Source: Rhizaria sp. SCN 62-66 (taxonomy: Eukaryota). From it: a DNA stretch of 33,424 bases. Position 1 is the first letter of the stretch, and each line of letters begins with the position of its first letter. The notes under the pieces are model-generated. The model was given only the letters and a program-made list of their open reading frames with translations. It made no database searches and was not told the DNA's origin. The stretch is taken from assembly GCA_001724265.1 (NCBI GenBank), contig MEDY01000328.1:1-33424 (forward strand), written 5' to 3'. Shown piece after piece: positions 5,552 to 24,017 of the stretch. The position numbers and the translations under genes are program-made.

Positions 5552-7139
5552 TCATTGGTCAACTGAAAGCTGACAGACAAGCTCATGCAACTGTTTGACT
5601 TCATCGACCACCCCAGCGCACGCCTCGTCATTGTTGACAAGTCCCGACAGCGCGGCTTCGCCATCAGCTGCAATAAAAGCTGCCAAAAACCGATTTTGAG
5701 GCTCGACAACGCCTTCGTTAGAGACCACAGAGTCTGCCCCCGCCCCAGCTTCTTCTCCGACCATGATCAGACTGCGAACAATCTTAAGCAGCCTGTTCAG
5801 CGTCTCGTCTGGTGGTGCCTCGGACAAAGCTACAGCGGTATTCAGCGCCTGAGCGCAAAACTGCACCGCACCCGAGTTGAGCAACGCTGTCGCAACGGCC
5901 ACACGGTCCCCGTTCTCTCGTGCGGGCGCGCTCAACGCACTGAGCAGCCCCCACGAGAGCTCGGCCGCGCACGTCCACTCCGTGTGCGCGACGTCGCCGT
6001 CGCGCGGTGGCGCGGGCAGGCGTGCAATAACCGCGTGCACCAGGTCCGACTCGAACACGCGGAGCACAAGCGCGGTCTCACGGCCCAACAGGTTCGACAG
6101 CAGCTGCAGTAGCTCGATGAGCGCGTTCACTTCGTCGGGCTCGAGCTCAGCAGCGCACCACTGGAGGCGCGCCAGCACGGGCGCGGTAAAGACGCGCGCA
6201 GGCGTGCCGTCGGTCAGCGCGGCGACATTACCAATGAGGCGCAGCGCGGGCGTGCGCGCCGATGGGAACTGCAGATGCTCTAGGGCCCAGTGAAACGTGC
6301 TGTTGTCACCCTCGTCCAAGAGATGGCTGAAGCGCACGCCGCGCGTTTCCGGGCGGTAAATCCGCGCCAGCGCCCATAGAGCATCAATCAACGCCTCGTA
6401 CAACTCAGGGATTTCGTGGTTGATACGCAAGCCGTGCGAGAGCAGAGGCACAAGTTGCGACACATAGCGGTACGACAGCGGCGGGCTCACATTGACAAAG
6501 TTAGAGAACGTCCAAACAAGGGTCTTGTACACATTGAAGCTGACGTTTCCGTTAACGCCGAGCGCTTGGATCATGTAAGTGCAGACACTGGCGAACGCGC
6601 CGCGCTTGCGCAGGGAGTCGACGGCCTCGCGACCTTCGCCAGCAATGTTGCCCAGGGTCCAGAGGGCGTACTCGATAGTGACGTCGGAGTAGCCGTTGTC
6701 GTCAGAGTTGCTGTTGTTGTCGTCGTCGTTGTTGCCGTCATCGTCACCGCTGTTGTTGCCGTATTTAATCACGCGGCAGAGCTTCTCGGCGACTCCGTTT
6801 TCGAGGAGAGCGGTACAACCTTCACTCGTGACTGCCAGGTTAGCAAATACCCTAAACGTCTCAGACATGCGTCCAGGTGCATCCGTGTCTGCACAGTACT
6901 ATAGGGCGCGCAAAAGCCAATTCAATACGCCGTATTCGAGACATAGCCGAGTGAAGGTTGACGCGTTACCAATTGCGCTCTGCACCGAAGACTCTTGATT
7001 CCAACTAGCGAGGAAGAGAGAGATGTCAGTTCTCCGAGCGCTTTGTGGAACAAAACATAGTCGAAATGAAGGGACATGCTACCGCATAATTAATATCAGG
7101 CAATTCGCCGCGATATGCCCGATCTGTTCTTGACTGGAG
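5552..7139 (-). CDS. Divergent importin-alpha-like armadillo-repeat protein; 5' end unresolved; in-frame TAG at 6899-6901
   Basis: ARM helix-3 motifs RVFANLA, ALWTLGNIAGE, LVWTFSNF, DALWALARI, PALRLIGNVA, LLSNLL. The frame continues upstream of ATG 6868 through one TAG to a splice acceptor at 7005-7006. Probable 78-nt intron 7005-7082 (GTAGCA...ACTGAC...pyrimidine tract...TAG). A further intron lies upstream (ACTAAC branch at 7190-7195). Ends in TGA. Confidence 0.75.
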
Positions 7140-7999: not shown

Positions 8000-8820
8000 T
8001 CAAAACCGCGCCTCCTGCTTCACGCCGCCGATAATGAGCGGCGACAGGATGCGAGCGGCAGAGGGGCCGTGCAGGGCTGTGAAGCGCTGCGTGGCGTCCT
8101 GGCCGGCGTAGGGCTGAAGCGCAAGACAAGCACACATGTGGGGTTACAAAAAGAAAAATGAGACAAAAAGTATTAATAACATCACAATGAGCACATTGAG
8201 CAACATAAGCCGTCGAATACAAAGCATATGGCAATCACGAGCTCGACATAGAGGCAAATTGATACAAGATCTCCAGCGTCACACAGAAGGTGATTCATGA
8301 AAATAAGCGAAATTCATTTGTTACCGGCAGCATATAGGCTAGTCCAGAAGATATCTCATGAGAAATAGAGCAATGCCGGTATGCATGGCACATTTGTTGT
8401 TGCTATAGACGTACAAGAATGGCTGCAGCACCGCCAGAGTGGGTCGTCATGAGTGACGTCACATCGACGACCTTGCCGTCGATGATCACCTGCGCGCGAA
8501 AACAAAGCAAGGCACAAAAGACCAGATAGATAAGTTAATATAGTGCACGAAAAATACCAGCAGTGGTGAAATGAAGGAAGGCAGCGTTGCTATCTTACCC
8601 AGCAGTCAGTGGCCGAGTTGTGCTGCTCGATCTCACTCTTGGTGTACATCGCCTGCGCGCGCGTGCCGAGGGGCAGGTAGGGCACGTTAAGCCCGTTCAG
8701 GGTCCCCATAGGCACGGCGGGACGAATAGACGCGGTCTGGCGCAGGACTGCAGCTGCGTTTTGTGCGGGGGCGTGCGGCATAGCGGCGGCGGGAGCGAGG
8801 GAAGCACTTGGCTGGGACAT
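8000..8820 (-). CDS. Cytochrome b5 heme-binding domain protein, apparently soluble; exons 8820-8599, 8489-8415, 8113-8000; 136 aa
   Basis: Spliced translation YTKSEIEQHNSATDCW|VIIDGKVVDVTSLMTTHSGGAAAIL|PYAGQDATQRFTALHG retains both axial His. Introns GTAAGA...CAG and GTACGT...CAG, both phase 0. Ends in TGA. Confidence 0.92.
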
Positions 8821-9209: not shown

Positions 9210-11826
9210 TTAGAGCTCGTCCTTGCCGCCGCCGTTGCGGTCACTGGTCATCTTGACCTCGGGCGCGGCGGACCGCGGCCAGTACTGACCCGCAATGAAG
9301 TCGAGCGTGCCGGCCACACCGTTGAAGTTCAGCGCCTGGGGCGCGACGGGGACGAGGTCGAAGGCGAGCTGCTGCGTCTTGCCGTCAGGGCTGGGCTTGA
9401 GCACCGGCTTGACCACGCGCGCCGCAGGCGTGAGAGTGATCTGGAACTGCTGCATCAGCGCCGCGTTGGACGCCGGCACGACGCCAACCTCTGCGTAGTC
9501 GTGGAACTCGGCGGCGAGTGCGCGCGCCAGCACCGGCACGCCGGGCTTGTCGGTCGCGATGAGCACGCGCGGTGCCAACATGTTCTGCATCAGCCACTGC
9601 TGGAACGCGTTGGCGTCGCCAGAGAGCACCTCGACGGCGATGTCGTCCAGCGCGGTCAGCGCCCACGCTGCCAGCGGCTTGAGCTCCACCGCGCCCGTGT
9701 ACGCACGGGCTGCGGCGGCACGCTGCTGCTTGAGGGCGGCGCGGTGCGCGGCCAGCGCGGCGGCGGCGGCCGAGGCGGCCTCGGCGGGGTCGGCGTCAGG
9801 CCCGACCTCGGGCTTGATGGCCGGGAGCTTGAGCGCCACGGCGGCCGGGAAAGACACGATCTGGCCGCCGCAGACGGCGCCGGTGGGCAGCCAGGCCTTG
9901 CGGAGGGCGGCCGTGGAGGCCTTGGCGTCGGCGTCGTCCTCCGCAGAGCAGCGGACCGTGGCGAAGGCGACCATGGAGTTGACTGACTTGCCAGCGTCCT
10001 CGAACTCCTTGCGCTCGGTCGCCTCGAGGGAGCTCTCGTCATCGCGCGCGAAGCGGACAACGAAGGGGCGTGCGCGGTGGCCGACCAGGGCGTCGGCGTT
10101 CTCGTCGGTCAGAGAGATGATCTCGCCGCGCTTGGTGTTGGGGCGCGACGGACGCTGCCACTTGAGCTCGTTCGCAGCAGCCTCCTGTCATAGATGCGAG
10201 ACGCAAGCAGGAGAGTGAGTTATGGTTATATTGTGGAATTGAAAGCTAAATTAGAGTAACATGTGTGGATCAACGTGCGCGTTTAGGTCTTATTTAAAAC
10301 GTACCTGAACCTTCTGCGCCTCACTGGTCGAGCCAGAAGAGGACGAAGAGGAGCTACTTGAGCTCGAGCTCGAGCTAGCACGAGCGGCCTTGCGGGCGCG
10401 CTTATCGAGCACTGCCTGGCACTGTCCACCCTCGCTGCCTTCGCTGCCGTCAGCGTTGGTGGTGACCAGCGGCAACAGCTTGCCTCCCGGCAGCGGCGCC
10501 GTGGTGGCCTGACCCTTCTGGAGCTCGTTGAGCCAGCGGTTGATGTCGTCGAGACGGAAAGAGCCGACAAGGGGCGCGGAGACGAGCTTGCGCGGCTGCA
10601 GCACGGCCAGCTGGGGATACTCCTGCGGCTCGAGCCCGAGGACATCGCGCACGAACGCGGGCTGTGCGCGGCCCGTAAGCCAGGAGAACTTGACGAAGTC
10701 GTCAGCGCGAAGGTCCTGGACCGACGCCAGCACGTCGAGGTCGTAGGCCGTCTGGCGGCGGGGCTGCTCGGGCGCGACGTAGATGGCGCAGAGCCCGCCC
10801 AGCGAGGCGCAGTGGGCCTGGAAGCACGACTCATCCGTCAGCTCGGGGATCGCCAAGGCCTCGGTGGCCGAGGTCGCCGTGTCGCGCGCGTAGAGCTGGA
10901 GGAAGGCGCGGATGGGGCCGGCCTTCATGAGGCCGGTGTACACGCGGGGCTCCTGTAATAGCGTCGTGATGACAACAATAGACAAGGAAGATATATGAGT
11001 TATAAGAGTACATTTTGGCATAAGATTAACATGAAAAGTTTGAGTTTAACTATAACGTTTAAGACTAGAATTCACTGATATCGTGGATATATATCTTGCT
11101 GTGTTCAGGGACACATACCTGATCGTCGAACTTGCCGCCGGCGGGGGTGGGAGGAATGACGACAATCGCAGGGAAATCCGAGATGTCAAACTTTTTCACC
11201 AGCTTCTTGTCACTCTTGTGCACCTCACCAACAAACAGGCGGTCCTTCATGTTGAGCGAGAGCGCAGCCCACGTCGGCATCGTCTCCTTCTTGGACGTAA
11301 ACAGCAGCGCCTTACCCATGTCAGCAGGCGCGTCCTTGACGAGCTTCTTGAAGTTGCTGTTGGTGACCTTGACCACGCGGCTTAACTTCTCCAGCTGCGC
11401 GTGGACGCCCTCGCGGAGGGACTTGGCCGTAAGCGCGGAGGCGTCGAGCTTCTCGCCCTCCTTGGGGTGGCCGTGGGAGAAGACCTTGACGACGGGCAGG
11501 TCGGCCGCGGTCACGCCCGCCGCGGCCAGCGCGGCGGCCGACTCGGGGTCCGCGGCGTCGACAGAGGCGAAGACGGCTTGACCGTGGAGCTCCTTGGCGA
11601 CGCGGTCGAACGTGTCGCGCAGAGGCTTGCACTTGGGGCACTTGGAGCGGGAGTAGAAGGCGACGTAGGTGAGAGCGTTGTCGCTACCCACAGCGGGGGC
11701 GAAGGAGTCGTCGTCGAGCTCGGTCACGTGGTGGGCCGAGAAGAATGACGACTGCGCCAGCGCGACAGACGCGGACAGGCTCAACAGGGCCGCCGCGAGG
11801 ACGAGAATGAGGCGGGAGAAACGCAT
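9210..11826 (-). CDS. ER-resident protein disulfide isomerase / multi-thioredoxin-fold protein; exons 11826-11119, 10952-10305, 10184-9210; 776 aa
   Basis: Signal peptide MRFSRLILVLAAALLSLSASVALA, VTELDDDSF...FYSRSKCPKCKPL thioredoxin domain with CPKC, further Trx-like domains, C-terminal KDEL then TAA. Introns GTATGT...CAG and GTACGT...CAG keep the frame. Confidence 0.88.
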
Positions 11827-12213
11827 TGGGGGTTGCAGTGGGGAAATCGCACGAACAATACGAAGTTGTGAGTTACAGCAGGAGTTGCTGCGGTTCGCAG
11901 GCCCTTGGTGTGGCTTAGGAGAGAGAAGTTCAGCGGGAAAAACCTCTCTGGTAGAAACGCGCAGTGCGATAAAGCAAGTGCGCGAAAGCTACGCAATCAA
12001 GGGCAGAGGATGGATGCGTGTGCAGGGATGTTGAGGGGAAGAAGCATCGAGAAGTGTCCAGAGTGGGGTGAGTTCAGGCGATTGGGGAGTAAGCGTAGAT
12101 TAAGGCAAATTCAGGTGACATAAAAAGAAAAACAAACAAAAATAAGAATGGTGCAGTCCGAAAAAACAATAGTATCTGCACTAGACCGTCTTGAATGCGG
12201 GAAGTTACTGTCA

Positions 12214-17380: not shown

Positions 17381-17672
17381 TCTCGTCGAGAAGTGAATAT
17401 TGAGTGCCAACGGGGTCAGATTTGCACTAGGGAGGCTGTGCTTAAATTATTATATTAAATATTGTTAAATAACATATATATTGCGACTTGATGTGTATCA
17501 ACGGATCATAGACTAACTTTATAGATCGTTTCTTGCCACCCTTCAGACAAACAAAGGCACTTGCCCCATCGCTTCCCGCGCTTCCCCTTGCTCCTCGCCG
17601 TGTACCCCGCTCGGTCTGAGCTTTCCACCGCGCCTTTGCCAGCCCCCGGCGGCTCTTTTACGCTCCGCCTCG

Positions 17673-20600
17673 ATGTCTGACACACGTGGCCTGGTCCTCC
17701 CGGCCATCGCGAAGCCCGGTGCAGACCCCGTCTCGGCGCTCGCTTCCCCGCCCTCCTCGGCCGCCCACGGCTCCAACAGCTCCAACGGCGCCTCCACGGC
17801 TGCGGGCGGCGTGCGCGTGTTCAAGCCTGTGCTCGTCCGCCGCAAGGTCAGCTCTGACAGCGCCCCTGAGCTGCAGCAGCTCGGTTTCTCCGTACCCGCC
17901 CCAGCGGTTCTGCCAGAGCTGCCGTCGCGCCCCACTTCGGCCGCCATCGCCCCACTGTCCCCGGCCGCCGCCGCGCACGGCCACGCAGCCGCTGCAAACG
18001 CCAGCGCGGCGGCGGCCCCGACCGTCTCGGCCGCCTTCACTGCCGCCGCCGCCGTAACGCCCGCTGGCCGCCACTCTGCCTTCGCTGCCCAGCACCACAC
18101 TCGAATCCCCTCCGCCTCGCACCACGCCGCCGCCCCGGCCTCTGCCGCCGCCTCCGGCGCGCAGGCGGGCCCGGTGGCGGGCGGTAAGACGCTGCTCGTC
18201 GCCCGCCGCGTTCCTCTGCCCTCCGCCGGCAACAACACCACCGCCAATACAAGCGCCCGCGGTAACTCTGCAGCTGCTGCTGCTGCTGCTGCTCGTAACG
18301 GCAGTGCCAGTGCAGGTTTGCCGTCCGCGGTGCCCGGCGCCGCGTCGACTCTTGCGCTGGCCTCCGCCGCGCTGGCCGACGACCCCGACGCCCCGGCTTC
18401 AGCGCTCGCGCTGACCTTAGAGCCCGAGTCTCTGGCCACAGACGCGGCCAGCTCCCACACTGCTGCTGCTGATGTGGGTGGTGCTTCAGTGGGCCCGCGG
18501 CTCGGTGCCGACGGCCGCGTCGTCTCCGCGGACGTCGTCGGCGACCCCGCGGCCGTGGATGCCCTCCGCTCCGCCCTCGCAGCGCTGGCCGCCGAGCGGG
18601 CCGCTCTGTCGCATCTGCTCCAGCCCAGCTCGAGCGGCAACAGCAACAGCGGCGGCAGTGGCAGTTCGCGGAATAGCCACGCACGGTGGGCCGACGGCAA
18701 TGGCAACAACAGCAACGATGACGGCCACGGTTATGACGGCTACGACGACAACAACAACGACGACGACTACGATGACGACGACTATGACGATAGCAACTCT
18801 GCCGCCCGCTTCCAGGCCGCGCAGGACGCTTACTAGGCCGCCGCCATGGGCTCTGCGGCCGCCGCCGCCACGGGCAGTGCGAGGGGATCCAAGGCCGCCC
18901 GCGTGCGCGCCCGCTGGGCCCAGCACCAGGCCGCATGGGGCGCCGTCGACCTCGCGTCCCGCACGTCCCGCATGGTCACCACCGGCAACGCCGCCGCGGC
19001 GCAGCGCTCCGCCGGCGGCAAGTCGCGGTCCACTGCGCGGGTGACCGGCGCTAGCGCTGGCGCTGGTGCTAGAGCGCTGCCGAGTGCGACCGCGGCGGCC
19101 CCGTCCCTGCTGCAGTCGTCGTCCCGTGCCCGCGCCGCCGCCGAAGTGTCCCGCCTTCGCGATCGCGCCGCTTCGCTCCGCGCGGCCGACGGGCCGACGA
19201 CGTGGGAGACAACGCTGCGCGGGCACCAAGACGCACTGGTCCCGGTCGGCGGGGCCCGCTCGGGGCTCTACTGCAAGATCCCCGTCCGCTGCCCCGCGCG
19301 CGTCGAGGTCGTCCGCAGCGCGCTGCCGGGCGCCAACGGCGACAACAACGCGTTATCCTTAAATGACAACGGCAACGACGATGATGAGGACGGCGACGAT
19401 GGAGAGAATGCCGATGGCGCTGTGGTTGCGCTGTCCAAGGACGCCGCGGGCGGAGACGCCGCCGCCCGCGCCGCCGCGGCCGCCTGGGCCGGTGTAAACT
19501 TGAACCCGCGCGCAGACTGGATGGCTGTGGCCGCTGTGCCACTGCGGCTCTACGCCGCGGCCCACGCCGACCTCACCTCCGCGACGCCGCACCTGGCCGC
19601 CGCGGCGAACAAGAAGGCCCGCATCGCTGCGAAGCAGGCCGAGGCCGCCGCGCAACGGGAAGCCGAGGCCTCCTCATCCTCCTCCTCCGCCGCCGCTGCC
19701 GCCGCTGCTGACGCTAACGTCGACGCTGATGTTGACGCGAGTGGAAACAGCAAGGGCTCCAGCAGCGCCGCCCAGTCCGGCCCCGCGGCCGTCGCCGTCA
19801 CTCCCTCCGTGGTCCTGGGCGCTGAGTCCGCCGCTGCCGCCGCAGGCGCCGTGGGCGCGGGGGATGCGCGCGCCGCGCTGCAGGGACGCGTGCCCGCAGG
19901 CACTATGGTGCGTGAGGCGGGCGTGCTTGCGCTGCGCAACACCGGCGACACAGCGCTGCGCTACACGTGGGACCTCACTCTCGACCACGGCACGAGCAGC
20001 ACTCACAGCGCGATCGCAGGCGCCGAGGGCGATGTCAGCGCGGTCGGCGCGACCCCGTTCCCCCTGCCGCCTGCCCGCGAGCCCGCGTACGCGTACAGCA
20101 ACAGCACTGCAGCAACCGCGAGCTCTGGCTCTGGCTCCTCCGGCTCCGTTGGCGCTGACATGGTCTACTGCGAAGGCTACGACGCCGCCGCGCTCCGCAG
20201 CGCTTCCGAGCTCGCTGCCCCGGTCCCCGCGCTCACCCTGTCCCTGCCCTGCCCTTCCGGCATTGCACTGCCAGGACACCTCGCCACCGCGCGCCTCCTT
20301 CTCGCGCGCGGTGGCTTACCTTCCGGCGCCCGCGGCCTAGCTTCCGCGCTGGTTCCCCCGACCGGCTCAGTGCACCACGCACGCGCCGTCCTCACTACTG
20401 TGCCCCCGCTTCCTCAGACAAGCTCCGACTCGAGCTCCAGCCCAGTGGCCGTGTCGGTGACCGTGCTGACGCCCTCGGCGGACGCCTGGGCTCCCGCGCG
20501 GTCCGCGCTGTCGGCCGCACTCGCTGCCCGCGCGCCCGTGTTGGCCGCCGCGGACACGGTGGCTCAGCTGGTGTGCGCGATGCCGCCCTCTGGGGTTGCT

Positions 20601-23600
20601 GAAGAGGACGAGCGGTACGAGTTCAGTCTCCGCAATAACAACTACAAGCACACTGGATACAGTCAGAGCAATAGTAGTGTAGAGCAGGAGCAGGAGCAGT
20701 TGTTCAAGAGTAAGTATATGTGGCAGCCCGCCCCTTGGTCCTCGCTGCCTTTCCCAGCCACCATCAGCTCCGGCTCTAGCTCTGATGGCAAAAGTGCTAC
20801 TGTCAAGAACCAGAGCCAAAACGATGAAGGCAACGACGCCGCTGCTGAGTCTGACGAATTTGACGACGACGATGATGATTACGAGGGTGTTGACGAGTCC
20901 AAGCGCCTCTACTTCCACGCCTCTCTGCAGCCTCAGTGGCACGCGCTGGCGGCTGACGTCATCGCCGCCCACCCGGCCTCGCTCCGACCGCAGCTGCGGT
21001 GGGACCTCACGGCCGCCTGGCTGCGCGGCGCCATCGCCTCCCTGCCGGCCCGCTCCCGGCCGCTGCTGCCGCGCCTGCGCGCGCGCTGGATCCGCCTCGT
21101 GGTTCAGGCGCAGCAGCCGCCCGCGCCGCACCCAGCGAGCTGCGCCGCACTTAAGGCCTTGCTCGCCGCCGCCACGGCACACACGCCGCGGCTGGCCCAC
21201 GCCGCCGCGCTGGCGCTGCCGCTGCCCGCCGAGCCCGCTGCCGCGGCCGCCGCGCGCGCTGCCTTAGCCGCCGCCGCTGCGGCCGCGGCCAAGCCCGCCG
21301 CGATGCGCGGGCGCCCCGGCGCCAACGCAGTCTCCGCCGCCGACGCCGCGGCGCTCGAGGCTTATGAGGCCCAGTGCGCCGTGGTTCGCGCGCGCCGCTC
21401 CGCGCTGCTGACGACGCTGCTCGCACAACACCTCGGCGCCGCGATTGCCGCGTGGGACGCCGTCGCCGCCCCCGCGCGCGCGCTGGCGGCCGAGGACCCG
21501 GCCGGCAAGGTTGAGCTGGAGGAGCTGGTCGCCGCGCAGCGCAGCGCCGCTGCCGCCGAGGCCGCCACGGCGGGCCGCCTGGTTTACTTCGGTGACGGCA
21601 CCTCGGCGCCGGACCCGGGCCCGCGGGCCGAGACGCGCGCGCAGCAGCAGGCGCGTGAGCTGGCTGAGCGCCGCCGCCCTCGCGCGTTCCAGACGCCCGC
21701 GCAGAAGGCCGAGGCGGCGCGCGCGGCGGCGCTGCTGGCCGCAGACCCGCTGCACGGCGCCGCCGCGACGGCCGTGGCGTTGGGCCCCGCAGGCGCGCTC
21801 GTAGCCACCGAGGGCCGCGCCGTGGCCGCCTGGCGCGCGCGTGCATTCGACGTCGCGCTGGCCGCCGCGGGCGGGGACAAGCGCGCGCGCGGCGCGCAGC
21901 AACGCGGCGGCGCCGCCATCGCCGCTGCCGCAGCCGCTGCAGCCGCCGCCGCCGCCGCTGCCGCTGCTGCGTCCAGCGCGACCGCCAACGCGCCTCCGAA
22001 TATGGGCGCCTCGAGCGACACTGAGGGCGGCCCCGGCATGGCGTCCGCGAACAGCTCGTTCAACGCCAGCAGCGCGGCACTGCCAAACTCTGGCTCCAGC
22101 GCCGCCAGCCCCGTCGCCACCAGCGGCGGCAACGGCGGCGGTGGCAGCGGCGGCGCTGCTGCGGCCGGGTCGGCGACCCCTACGGGCCCGACCTCCGCAG
22201 CGGCGGCCGCGGCCGCCGTGGCCGCGGCCGTGGCCGCGGCCGCGACGTCCGGCGCGGACGTGCCGGGCCACCCCGGTCTGCGGGACCGGCGTACCGTGCC
22301 CGAGCTGGCGGGGCTGTCGGTGCGCCAGCTCGTCTCCACGGGCGACGCTGCGGGCCTCGTGGTGACGACCGACGGCGCGCTGTACAGCTGGGGGCCTACT
22401 ACGGCCGCCACGCAGGCCGCCGCCGCGGCGTCGCCGGTGCTGACCCGGGCGCTTCAGCAGCTCTCCGGCACCAACATCGCCAGCTCCAGCTCCAGCTTCG
22501 GCTCGAACGCGAGTGTCAGTACAAGCAATGTTCCTAGCGGCTCTGTCGTCGCGCCCACCGAGCCGCTGCTGCGGCCGGTGGACGCGGCGCTCTCAGCCGC
22601 GCGCGTCAAGGCCGTCGCCGCGACGCTGGATCCCGCGCCTGGCCAAACGGCCTTCTTCGCCGTCACTGAAGCGGGCGCGCTCTACGCCTGGGGCGACGCG
22701 GCATCCCCGAAGCTCTCGCTGCTGGCGCTGCCTCAGCGCGGCGCCAACGTGGCCACGGCGCCCACCCCCGTGCTCGTGCCCGGCTTCGCCCTGCGCGGTA
22801 TCAAGATCGCCGCCGTGGCCGCGGGCGCGCAGCACGTGCTGGCCCTCACCACCACGGGCGCCGTCTACGCGTGGGGCAGCAACGACGCCGGGCAGCTCGG
22901 CCTGGGCGACAAGCGGCCCCGCATGCTACCGACGCTTGTCGAGGCGCTCTCGCGCCCCGGGTCGAGCAACGACCTGGCCAGCGACAAGCTTGACGACGAC
23001 GGCAAGGTTGTGCTGGCTGACTCGACCGCCGAGGGCGCCGTCGCAGGCCCGCGCGGCCGCCGCACAGCCCATAACAGCACCAGCGGCTCTGGCGGCTCTA
23101 GCAGCATTGGGAGTGGCAGCGGCAACGGCAACGGCGGGTCGGTCTCCCCGTCGCCGTCTCCCATAGGCCCTACACTGGGCGTCCCCGGATCTGCTGAGGG
23201 CGGCGGGCCGCTGCCGCTGACGCGCGTGCGCAGCACGAGCCGCTCCAACACCGGCGGGAGCAACATTACCAACAGCAGCAACGCCGGTGACGCCGATGCT
23301 GCGGCCTCGTTCGACCCCATTGTCGCCATCGACTGCGGCCTCAGCTTCTCCCTCGCCGTCACGGCCTCCGGCGCCGTGTACTGCTGGGGCGAGGGCCGCG
23401 ACGGCGCGCTCGGCCACGGCGACACCAAGGACTGCGACCGACCCCGCCGCCTCGACGCCTTCCCCCCTGCCGCCAGCCTCGGCTTCAACAATACGGCGGC
23501 AGCGTTCGGCAGCGTGCATCTGGCCGAGGACAGCATCCCCTCCAGCCGCTCCGCCACGGCCACGGGCCAGCGCCGCCCTCCTTCGCAGCATCGCCGCACC

Positions 23601-24017
23601 GTCGGTGGCCCGCACGGCGGGGTTTTGTCCGCGACCGCGGCTACGGCTGCAGTGAGCTCTAGGGACCCGACTGGCCGCGACCGGCGCATCGTCTCGGCGC
23701 GCTGCGGGCACCGGCACGTGATCGCATTGGCGCAGTCGGGCGACGTGTGGGCCTGGGGCGCCAACGGGGCCGGGCAGTTGGGCCTGGGCACTGCCATTGC
23801 GGCTACAGCTGCCAACGGCGTCGTCAGTGCAGAGGACGCGGCGGCCGCCGTGACTGCGACGCCCACGCTTGTGCCCGCGCTGGCGCAGAGCGCCGTGTCT
23901 CCCGCGCGGGTCGTCGCAGTGGCCGCGGGCGGTAACGCCAGCGCGGTGACAATGCAGCCGCCCGTGGAGGAGGACGAGGAGAACGCGAGCGGTGACAACA
24001 GCGAGAATTCTCTCTGA
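17673..24017 (+). CDS. MYCBP-associated-protein-like N-terminal region fused to C-terminal RCC1 repeats; 2114 aa if the in-frame TAG at 18834-18836 is decoded
   Basis: ORFs 17673-18836 and 18846-24017 are in the same frame, separated only by TAG GCC GCC GCC. MYCBPAP-like motifs occur on both sides (GPRLGADGRVVSADVVGD; WETTLRG...VPVGGARSGLYCKI; LRNTGDTALRYTW...GIALPG). RCC1 motifs: AGAQHVLALTTTGAVYAWGSNDAGQLGLGD, CGLSFSLAVTASGAVYCWGEGRDGALGHGD, CGHRHVIALAQSGDVWAWGANGAGQLGLG. Ends in TGA. Confidence 0.75.

Follow-up and report, generated by a model that had tools for sequence, protein, structure and literature searches.

In nuclear genetic codes, UAA and UAG nearly always carry the same meaning. 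The few exceptions reported, in which UAG alone was reassigned and UAA remained a stop codon, read UAG as leucine, glutamine or serine (PMC11687900); they include phyllopharyngean ciliates (Leu, Gln), Protocruzia tuzeti (Gln) and Scotinosphaera (Ser), described in the same source, and Iotanema spirale (Gln) and the rhizarian exLh (Leu) (PMC5304391). Glutamate has been reported as the meaning of UAG in the peritrich code, together with UAA = Glu (PMC11687900), in Blastocrithidia, where UAR = Glu (PMC12153298), UGA = Trp and UAA also serves as a stop, and in the ciliate Oligohymenophorea sp. PL0344, where UAA = Lys (PMC10553269).

The organism described here is an uncultured wastewater protist, represented by a eukaryotic assembly of 34.9 Mb in 714 contigs. 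UAG was found to be almost certainly a sense codon in this genome, and the sequence evidence makes it probable that it specifies glutamate with UAA and UGA as stops, as a variant nuclear code. It would resemble the UAG-only codes in that UAG is sense and UAA and UGA terminate, with a CUA suppressor tRNA as described for ciliate MAGs, but would differ from them in the residue, Glu, and in the very rare use of UAG. A search of titles and abstract openings found no report of UAG = Glu with UAA as a stop; the literature covered was mostly outside subscription journals, and a prior report is possible. The term "genetic code" was absent from a 2026 cercozoan phylogenomics paper.

The runs containing the window (the whole stretch of 33,424 nucleotides that was analysed, contig C328 of the assembly) were wastewater and activated-sludge libraries from two studies. 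The host lineage is likely to be Cercozoa, as judged from one gene and one identified rhizarian: in a GlyRS tree of 38 rows, the protein grouped at 96/94 with Mataza sp. D1 (cercozoan) and seven other proteins, on a long branch. Ubiquitins of the organism (L158, L159, L160, L169 and L170, on contigs C3, C182, C651, C445 and C168) were very divergent, with an extra Met-Ser at the start. Several single-unit genes end three residues past Gly-Gly, and no head-to-tail polyubiquitin junction was found within the ubiquitin stretches examined; an insertion between polyubiquitin monomers has been described as a cercozoan marker (PMC12930898).

The meaning of the three canonical stops was investigated with a coding model trained on frames without any of them, in 80 stretches of 10 kb (800 kb, about 2% of the genome), by asking if coding went on past a codon preceded by 25 that were confidently coding. 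Coding continued after 8 of 12 TAG codons, 0 of 36 TAA codons and 0 of 29 TGA codons (Fisher p 2e-8), with six sense-codon controls continuing at 77-84%. Three of the four TAG sites that failed were open for 25 codons, and these 4 of 12 sites leave room for rare terminal use of TAG. Coding on both sides was identified at 21 TAG sites and at no TAA or TGA site, and UAA was the commonest stop in the genome. TAG itself was rare: a sample of 204,665 codons contained 50, including a few in introns, against 7,124 GAG. UAG is read as Glu in the peritrich and Blastocrithidia codes, as it would be here, but UAA is coupled to it there, whereas no TAA of the 36 continued here. Codes of the UAR = Glu and PL0344 types were rejected for this genome, as UAA is not sense (0/36, with none coding on both sides).

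Nine kinase matches held TAG as the only stop, five of these TAGs lying in exons and four at intron edges. TAG-only matches to Ras and kinesin (n = 3) were set aside, two being splice acceptors and the third unresolved as a TAG in the domain frame. No Pfam domain was found across the TAG in 20 scanned sites of the 21 found at random. On contig C44, a single long frame (L119:2400-4000) contains eight in-frame TAGs and a Nudix-like domain, against an average of about one TAG per 4,000 codons. One 10 kb stretch (L095, G000 C11:140001-150000) is open from end to end in a single frame of 3,332 codons or more, which abounds in Thr, Ser and Val.

The window contains two in-frame TAG codons, and the features examined were as follows.

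5552..6898, minus strand: 448-codon continuation of an importin-alpha-like ARM-repeat gene, with TGA 5554-5552 at its end
6899..6901, minus strand: in-frame TAG, most likely Glu; would be codon 63 with an in-frame N-terminus
6899..6928, minus strand: proposed 30-nt intron, rejected on ungapped X1 and X3 contigs and on residues conserved in paralogs
6902..6984, minus strand: coding stretch in the TAG frame directly upstream of the TAG, from paralog alignment
6984..6985, minus strand: frameshift point, at which one run-X4 contig has 10 extra bases
6985..7077, minus strand: true N-terminus from ATG 7077-7075, in another frame here; includes the supposed acceptor at 7005
18834..18836, plus strand: another in-frame TAG, linking frames of 439 and 1726 codons

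The second TAG is the sole interruption of an RCC1-repeat gene of 2167 codons (17517-24017, plus strand). The first had been noticed by the first-pass annotation, which placed it in frame within an armadillo repeat, and both the frame and the repeat alignment were reproduced: the TAG is preceded by LCLEYGVLNWLLRAL and followed by 448 open codons up to the TGA, and the repeat self-alignment runs without gaps over 18 residues, 7 of which are identical, with TAG opposite Lys and the quoted peptides as stated. The assignment to ARM repeats stood in part. The protein matched importin-alpha (E 7e-11, 44.7 bits, query residues 104-273), and the features of one paralog were placed among Arm clusters at 0.93-0.96, but a Pfam scan of the protein, which covered the part downstream of the true N-terminus, returned neither an Arm nor an IBB match. 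The similarity to importin-alpha extends over part of the protein only, and the relationship is one predicted from sequence.

The exon carrying the TAG had been proposed to start at a good acceptor at 7005. This did not hold, as that position lies inside coding DNA (7077-6985) that, when read from the ATG at 7077, aligned to the N-termini of all seven paralogs tested. Alignment scores were 33-77 in this frame against 14-18 in the frame of the TAG, and shuffled controls reached the real score in 0 of 500 cases for six paralogs and in 1 of 500 for the seventh. By its sequence, 7077-6985 is taken to be coding DNA severed by a frameshift at about 6985, with no intron. Translation from ATG 7077 in the window allele would run for 51 codons before reaching TGA 6924-6922. 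One X4 contig (depth 6.4) has 10 added bases at 6984/6985, which by arithmetic would give a single frame of 511 codons with the TAG as codon 63. With a single X4 contig for comparison, the lesion upstream of the TAG may be either a true break in the window allele or a misassembly.

An intron of 30 nt at 6928-6899, which would take out the TAG, had been put forward as an alternative and begins with GT and ends with AG. It is barely credible. An X1 contig (6765-6965) spans both the proposed intron and the TAG with no gap and no difference, and an X3 contig (6749-6970) spans the intron ungapped with one difference. The X1 and X3 runs are of one sample, flagged as possibly DNA, yet their contigs contain spliced joints at neighbouring introns; their ungapped course through 6928-6899 therefore disfavours the intron and does not prove expression. 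Spliced introns in the window measured about 109-301 nt, and the paralogs are intronless at this position, with the residues conserved. Two genes lie nearby, namely a short gene at about 8000-8820 (minus strand), which from its motif we take to resemble cytochrome b5, the piece of it scanned with Pfam returning no match, and a thioredoxin/PDIA6-like gene at 9210-11988 (minus strand) with a KDEL end. Three introns of these two genes were spliced in the X1/X3 contigs.

The gene belongs to a family with 48 matches on 31 contigs, in which the stops were TAG only in nine, TAA only in one, TGA only in none, mixed in two and absent in 36, a bias towards TAG greater than chance would give. From these sequences, the family is a divergent, intronless, lineage-specific and importin-alpha-like one. 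Many members were seen near contig ends, some are broken, and the family turns over fast. At the column of the TAG, 15 paralogs had E in ten, D in two, and K, Q and G in one each; in a set of nine paralogs, E was found in eight and K in one. The ratio dN/dS of the region 5552..6898 was 0.31-0.50 against four paralogs, and downstream of a TAG common to two paralogs it was 0.55, weakly below 1 (p 0.06). The earlier suggestion of a recent pseudogene may apply to the window allele through its upstream frameshift, but not on account of the TAG. Production of protein from this copy would hinge on that frameshift rather than on the TAG, and the gene may be a minor example of the code, non-functional in the window allele.

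A standard code, with the ARM gene and the rest of the TAG-bearing genes explained as pseudogenes or faults of assembly, is very improbable. The frameshift in the window allele, the fast turnover with broken members and the dN/dS of 0.55 all point in that direction, but this reading is already contradicted: TAG, TAA and TGA differ as 21/0/0 at sites with coding on both sides, a tRNA with a CUA anticodon is present, and a TAG lies in the only eRF1 gene found and recurs in a second assembly (see below).

A pattern search identified a single tRNA gene with a CUA anticodon (G000:C84:76008-76080, minus strand), on a contig that also has kinase and kinesin matches. The first tRNA pattern used had given zero matches and the second 15 at chance level, none of the four examined being called a tRNA. 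The CUA gene is present in a single copy, forms a full cloverleaf with G at position 73, scored 58.0 bits with the Rfam tRNA model (58.3 for tRNA-Glu(CUC)) and has a T run after its 3' end. Among the 48 distinct tRNA sequences compared, from a partial list in which 63 of 506 candidates were scored, its best match was tRNA-Glu(CUC), with 47 of 73 positions identical against 33 and 29 for two tRNA-Gln types. The two agree in the T stem and in the five outermost acceptor-stem pairs, from U1-A72 inwards, and the first base of both tRNA-Gln types of the genome is G. A pattern for tRNAs starting with UCC gave 13 matches, comprising eight Glu(CUC), one Glu(UUC), the CUA gene and three that were not tRNA-like, and a DNA search with tRNA-Glu(CUC) returned its eight identical copies and nothing else. 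The CUA tRNA has A37, U11-A24, U13-G22 with A46, and no base 47, described as Glu identity elements in E. coli (PMC9976931); these bacterial rules apply here by analogy, and the tRNA-Gln(CUG) of the genome has all of them but A46. An engineered human tRNA-Glu with a CUA anticodon has been reported to insert about 95% Glu (PMC12204705).

PL0344 resembles this genome in that UAG would be Glu in both and the CUA tRNAs of both are nearest to tRNA-Glu. It differs in being a ciliate, with UAA as sense and 10 CUA tRNA genes (PMC10553269), whereas here UAA is a stop, one CUA gene was found and the organism is not a ciliate. No tRNA with a UUA anticodon was seen within the genome stretches examined. 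At L152 (G000 C4:242400-242600), the sequence looks like a degenerate anticodon arm of tRNA-Glu(CUC), though neither ARAGORN nor Rfam called a tRNA there.

The sole eRF1 gene found, further PF03463 matches in the genome being Pelota-like, has a TAG within the region coding for the N domain, aligned gap-free with Glu107 of the human protein. In 117 homologs (of 120, with three fused or duplicated matches excluded), this column held E in 106, D in 10, V in one and Q in none; the closest homolog, 84% identical, is the one with Val rather than Glu. A public metagenome contig (L174) was identical over 1626 nt of the eRF1 region, TAG included, which makes an assembly error an unlikely source of the eRF1 TAG. 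Apart from this identical contig, scanning metagenomes for relatives of the eRF1 yielded nine distant ones, several of them ciliate-like. In metagenome contigs of other organisms (L178 and L180-L183), AT-rich ciliate-like eRF1 genes were seen about 1-2 kb from tRNA genes with a UUA anticodon.

The stop-recognition domain of the eRF1 has the changes T32S (in the GTS loop), G57S and T58K, at positions of which Thr32 is conserved in 116 and Gly57 in 117 of the 117 homologs, and it retains NIKS, YxCxxxF and Leu69. Thr32 has been described as touching the G of UAG and as altered in Iotanema (PMC5304391), and its replacement by Ser may affect UAG recognition here. Thr32 is thus changed in both organisms, to Gly in Iotanema and to Ser here, whereas Leu69, retained here, is Ala in the rhizarian exLh, for which UAG = Leu has been reported (PMC5304391). 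A relative of this eRF1 that is 84% identical (P0004) has T58K in common with it, with Thr32 and Gly57 intact, as a possible earlier step.

The identity of the residue was assessed from several sets of sites. At 19 TAG sites, the nearest paralog had E at six, Q at three and K at two, a tally in which E leads Q by 5 log units. A column-plurality likelihood over 20 family sites put Q ahead of E by 2 log units, and K ranked first in a pooled column profile of 22 TAG sites. Pfam bits summed over six sites, with the best family taken per site (Pkinase for four kinases), were 333.9 for E, 332.5 for Q, 332.0 for K, 327.7 for S, 322.9 for Y and 321.4 for L, placing E above Q by 1.4 bits and above L by 12.5 bits. 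Leu makes up 40-44% of the residues in TTA/TTG columns but does not rank among the top seven where TAG stands. A code of the exLh type, with UAG = Leu, was rejected on L being the lowest of the six residues in the Pfam sums.

Single genes gave both residues. In the Nudix-like gene, both of the closest homologs have E at the first TAG, and E was found in five, Q in two and V in one of eight homologs at the second; the search was slightly biased by a query with E for each TAG, and a word-indexed search for Nudix homologs returned none. In a ubiquitin-like copy (L157), TAG occupies a position that is Q in the ubiquitins of the organism, and the TAG of a NEK1-like kinase lies opposite a Q of human NEK1. 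A CAMK site, with A or K opposite the TAG in the five alignments listed, was uninformative. The neighbour context of 46 TAG sites (some intronic) gave an E-Q score of -0.6, between Glu codons (+63 to +80) and Gln codons (-75 to -141), and a Gln-rich context was found for 6.5% of TAG sites against 23-37% of CAG/CAA. Neither the family-wide paralog tally nor the context test separated Glu from Gln.

Glu is favoured over Gln since the only CUA tRNA found is of Glu type and Glu is what the homologs have at the most conserved sites. The best reading of the sequences is that Glu is more likely than Gln, with several weakly constrained sites aligning to Gln. Strongly constrained sites would be Glu, and tolerant sites would acquire TAG from CAG via a transition. 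The proposal of the first-pass annotation that the TAG encodes a polar residue, Gln rather than Leu or Trp, can thus be kept as regards a sense codon for a polar residue that is not Leu (the Pfam test scored E, Q, K, S, Y and L), but Glu should probably replace Gln.

A UAG = Gln code of the Iotanema type is distinctly unlikely. Gln has been described as the commonest target of eukaryotic stop reassignment (PMC11687900), which counts for it, as do the Q at the ubiquitin-like site, at the NEK1 site and in three family columns. Yet the CUA-search pattern was able to match an intronless CUA form of tRNA-Gln(CUG) and returned none, leaving the Glu-type gene as the sole CUA tRNA found, and Q occurs at the eRF1 site in none of the 117 homologs. 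Few TAG sites share the Gln-rich context of CAG/CAA, and synonymous transitions would predict many more Q columns than E columns, whereas E is at least as common.

Mixed decoding is a fair rival, though an unlikely one. UAG would then be sense but ambiguous or leaky, read mainly as Glu via the CUA tRNA and partly as Gln via near-cognate tRNA-Gln(CUG), or partly as a stop. This is consistent with TAG sites aligning to both E and Q, a context between those of E and Q codons, the great rarity of TAG, one CUA tRNA gene against eight for Glu(CUC) and the retention of NIKS and YxCxxxF in eRF1, and near-cognate read-through by tRNA-Gln is mentioned in the literature (PMC13192750). Against it, a mixture of E and Q would also be expected under pure Glu decoding, CAG-to-TAG transitions being common at tolerant Gln sites, and a single-copy eRF1 gene and a gene with eight TAGs are ill-suited to leakiness.

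UAG as a rare sense codon for glutamate, with UAA and UGA terminating, remains the preferred reading. Under it, the CUA tRNA would be charged with Glu by GluRS, its anticodon would pair with UAG and not with UAA, uncoupling the two codons, and the altered eRF1 would be a poor competitor for UAG. At 6901, a Glu position of the ARM-repeat family, GAG would have changed to TAG without altering the protein. It is rather unlikely, but conceivable, that the UAG in eRF1 makes the level of release factor self-limiting, in an unfinished reassignment in which one Glu tRNA competes with an eRF1 still partly recognising UAG. At about one TAG per 4,000 codons, the chance of a TAG in a gene of 430 codons is roughly 10%, which allows this reading and no more. 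The internal stop in bacterial RF2 may offer an analogue.

UAG = Glu with UAA as a stop, outside ciliates, would be a new code variant. As the suppressor tRNA and the altered eRF1 have both been identified, the mechanism would be directly testable in yeast or a cell-free system. The conservative T32S, together with a relative that has T58K and an intact Thr32, suggests testable steps by which an eRF1 may lose UAG alone, and such stepwise loss would be relevant for amber suppression in genetic code expansion. For the organism itself, extrapolation suggests that standard gene calling would cut short in the order of a thousand genes, including that of eRF1.
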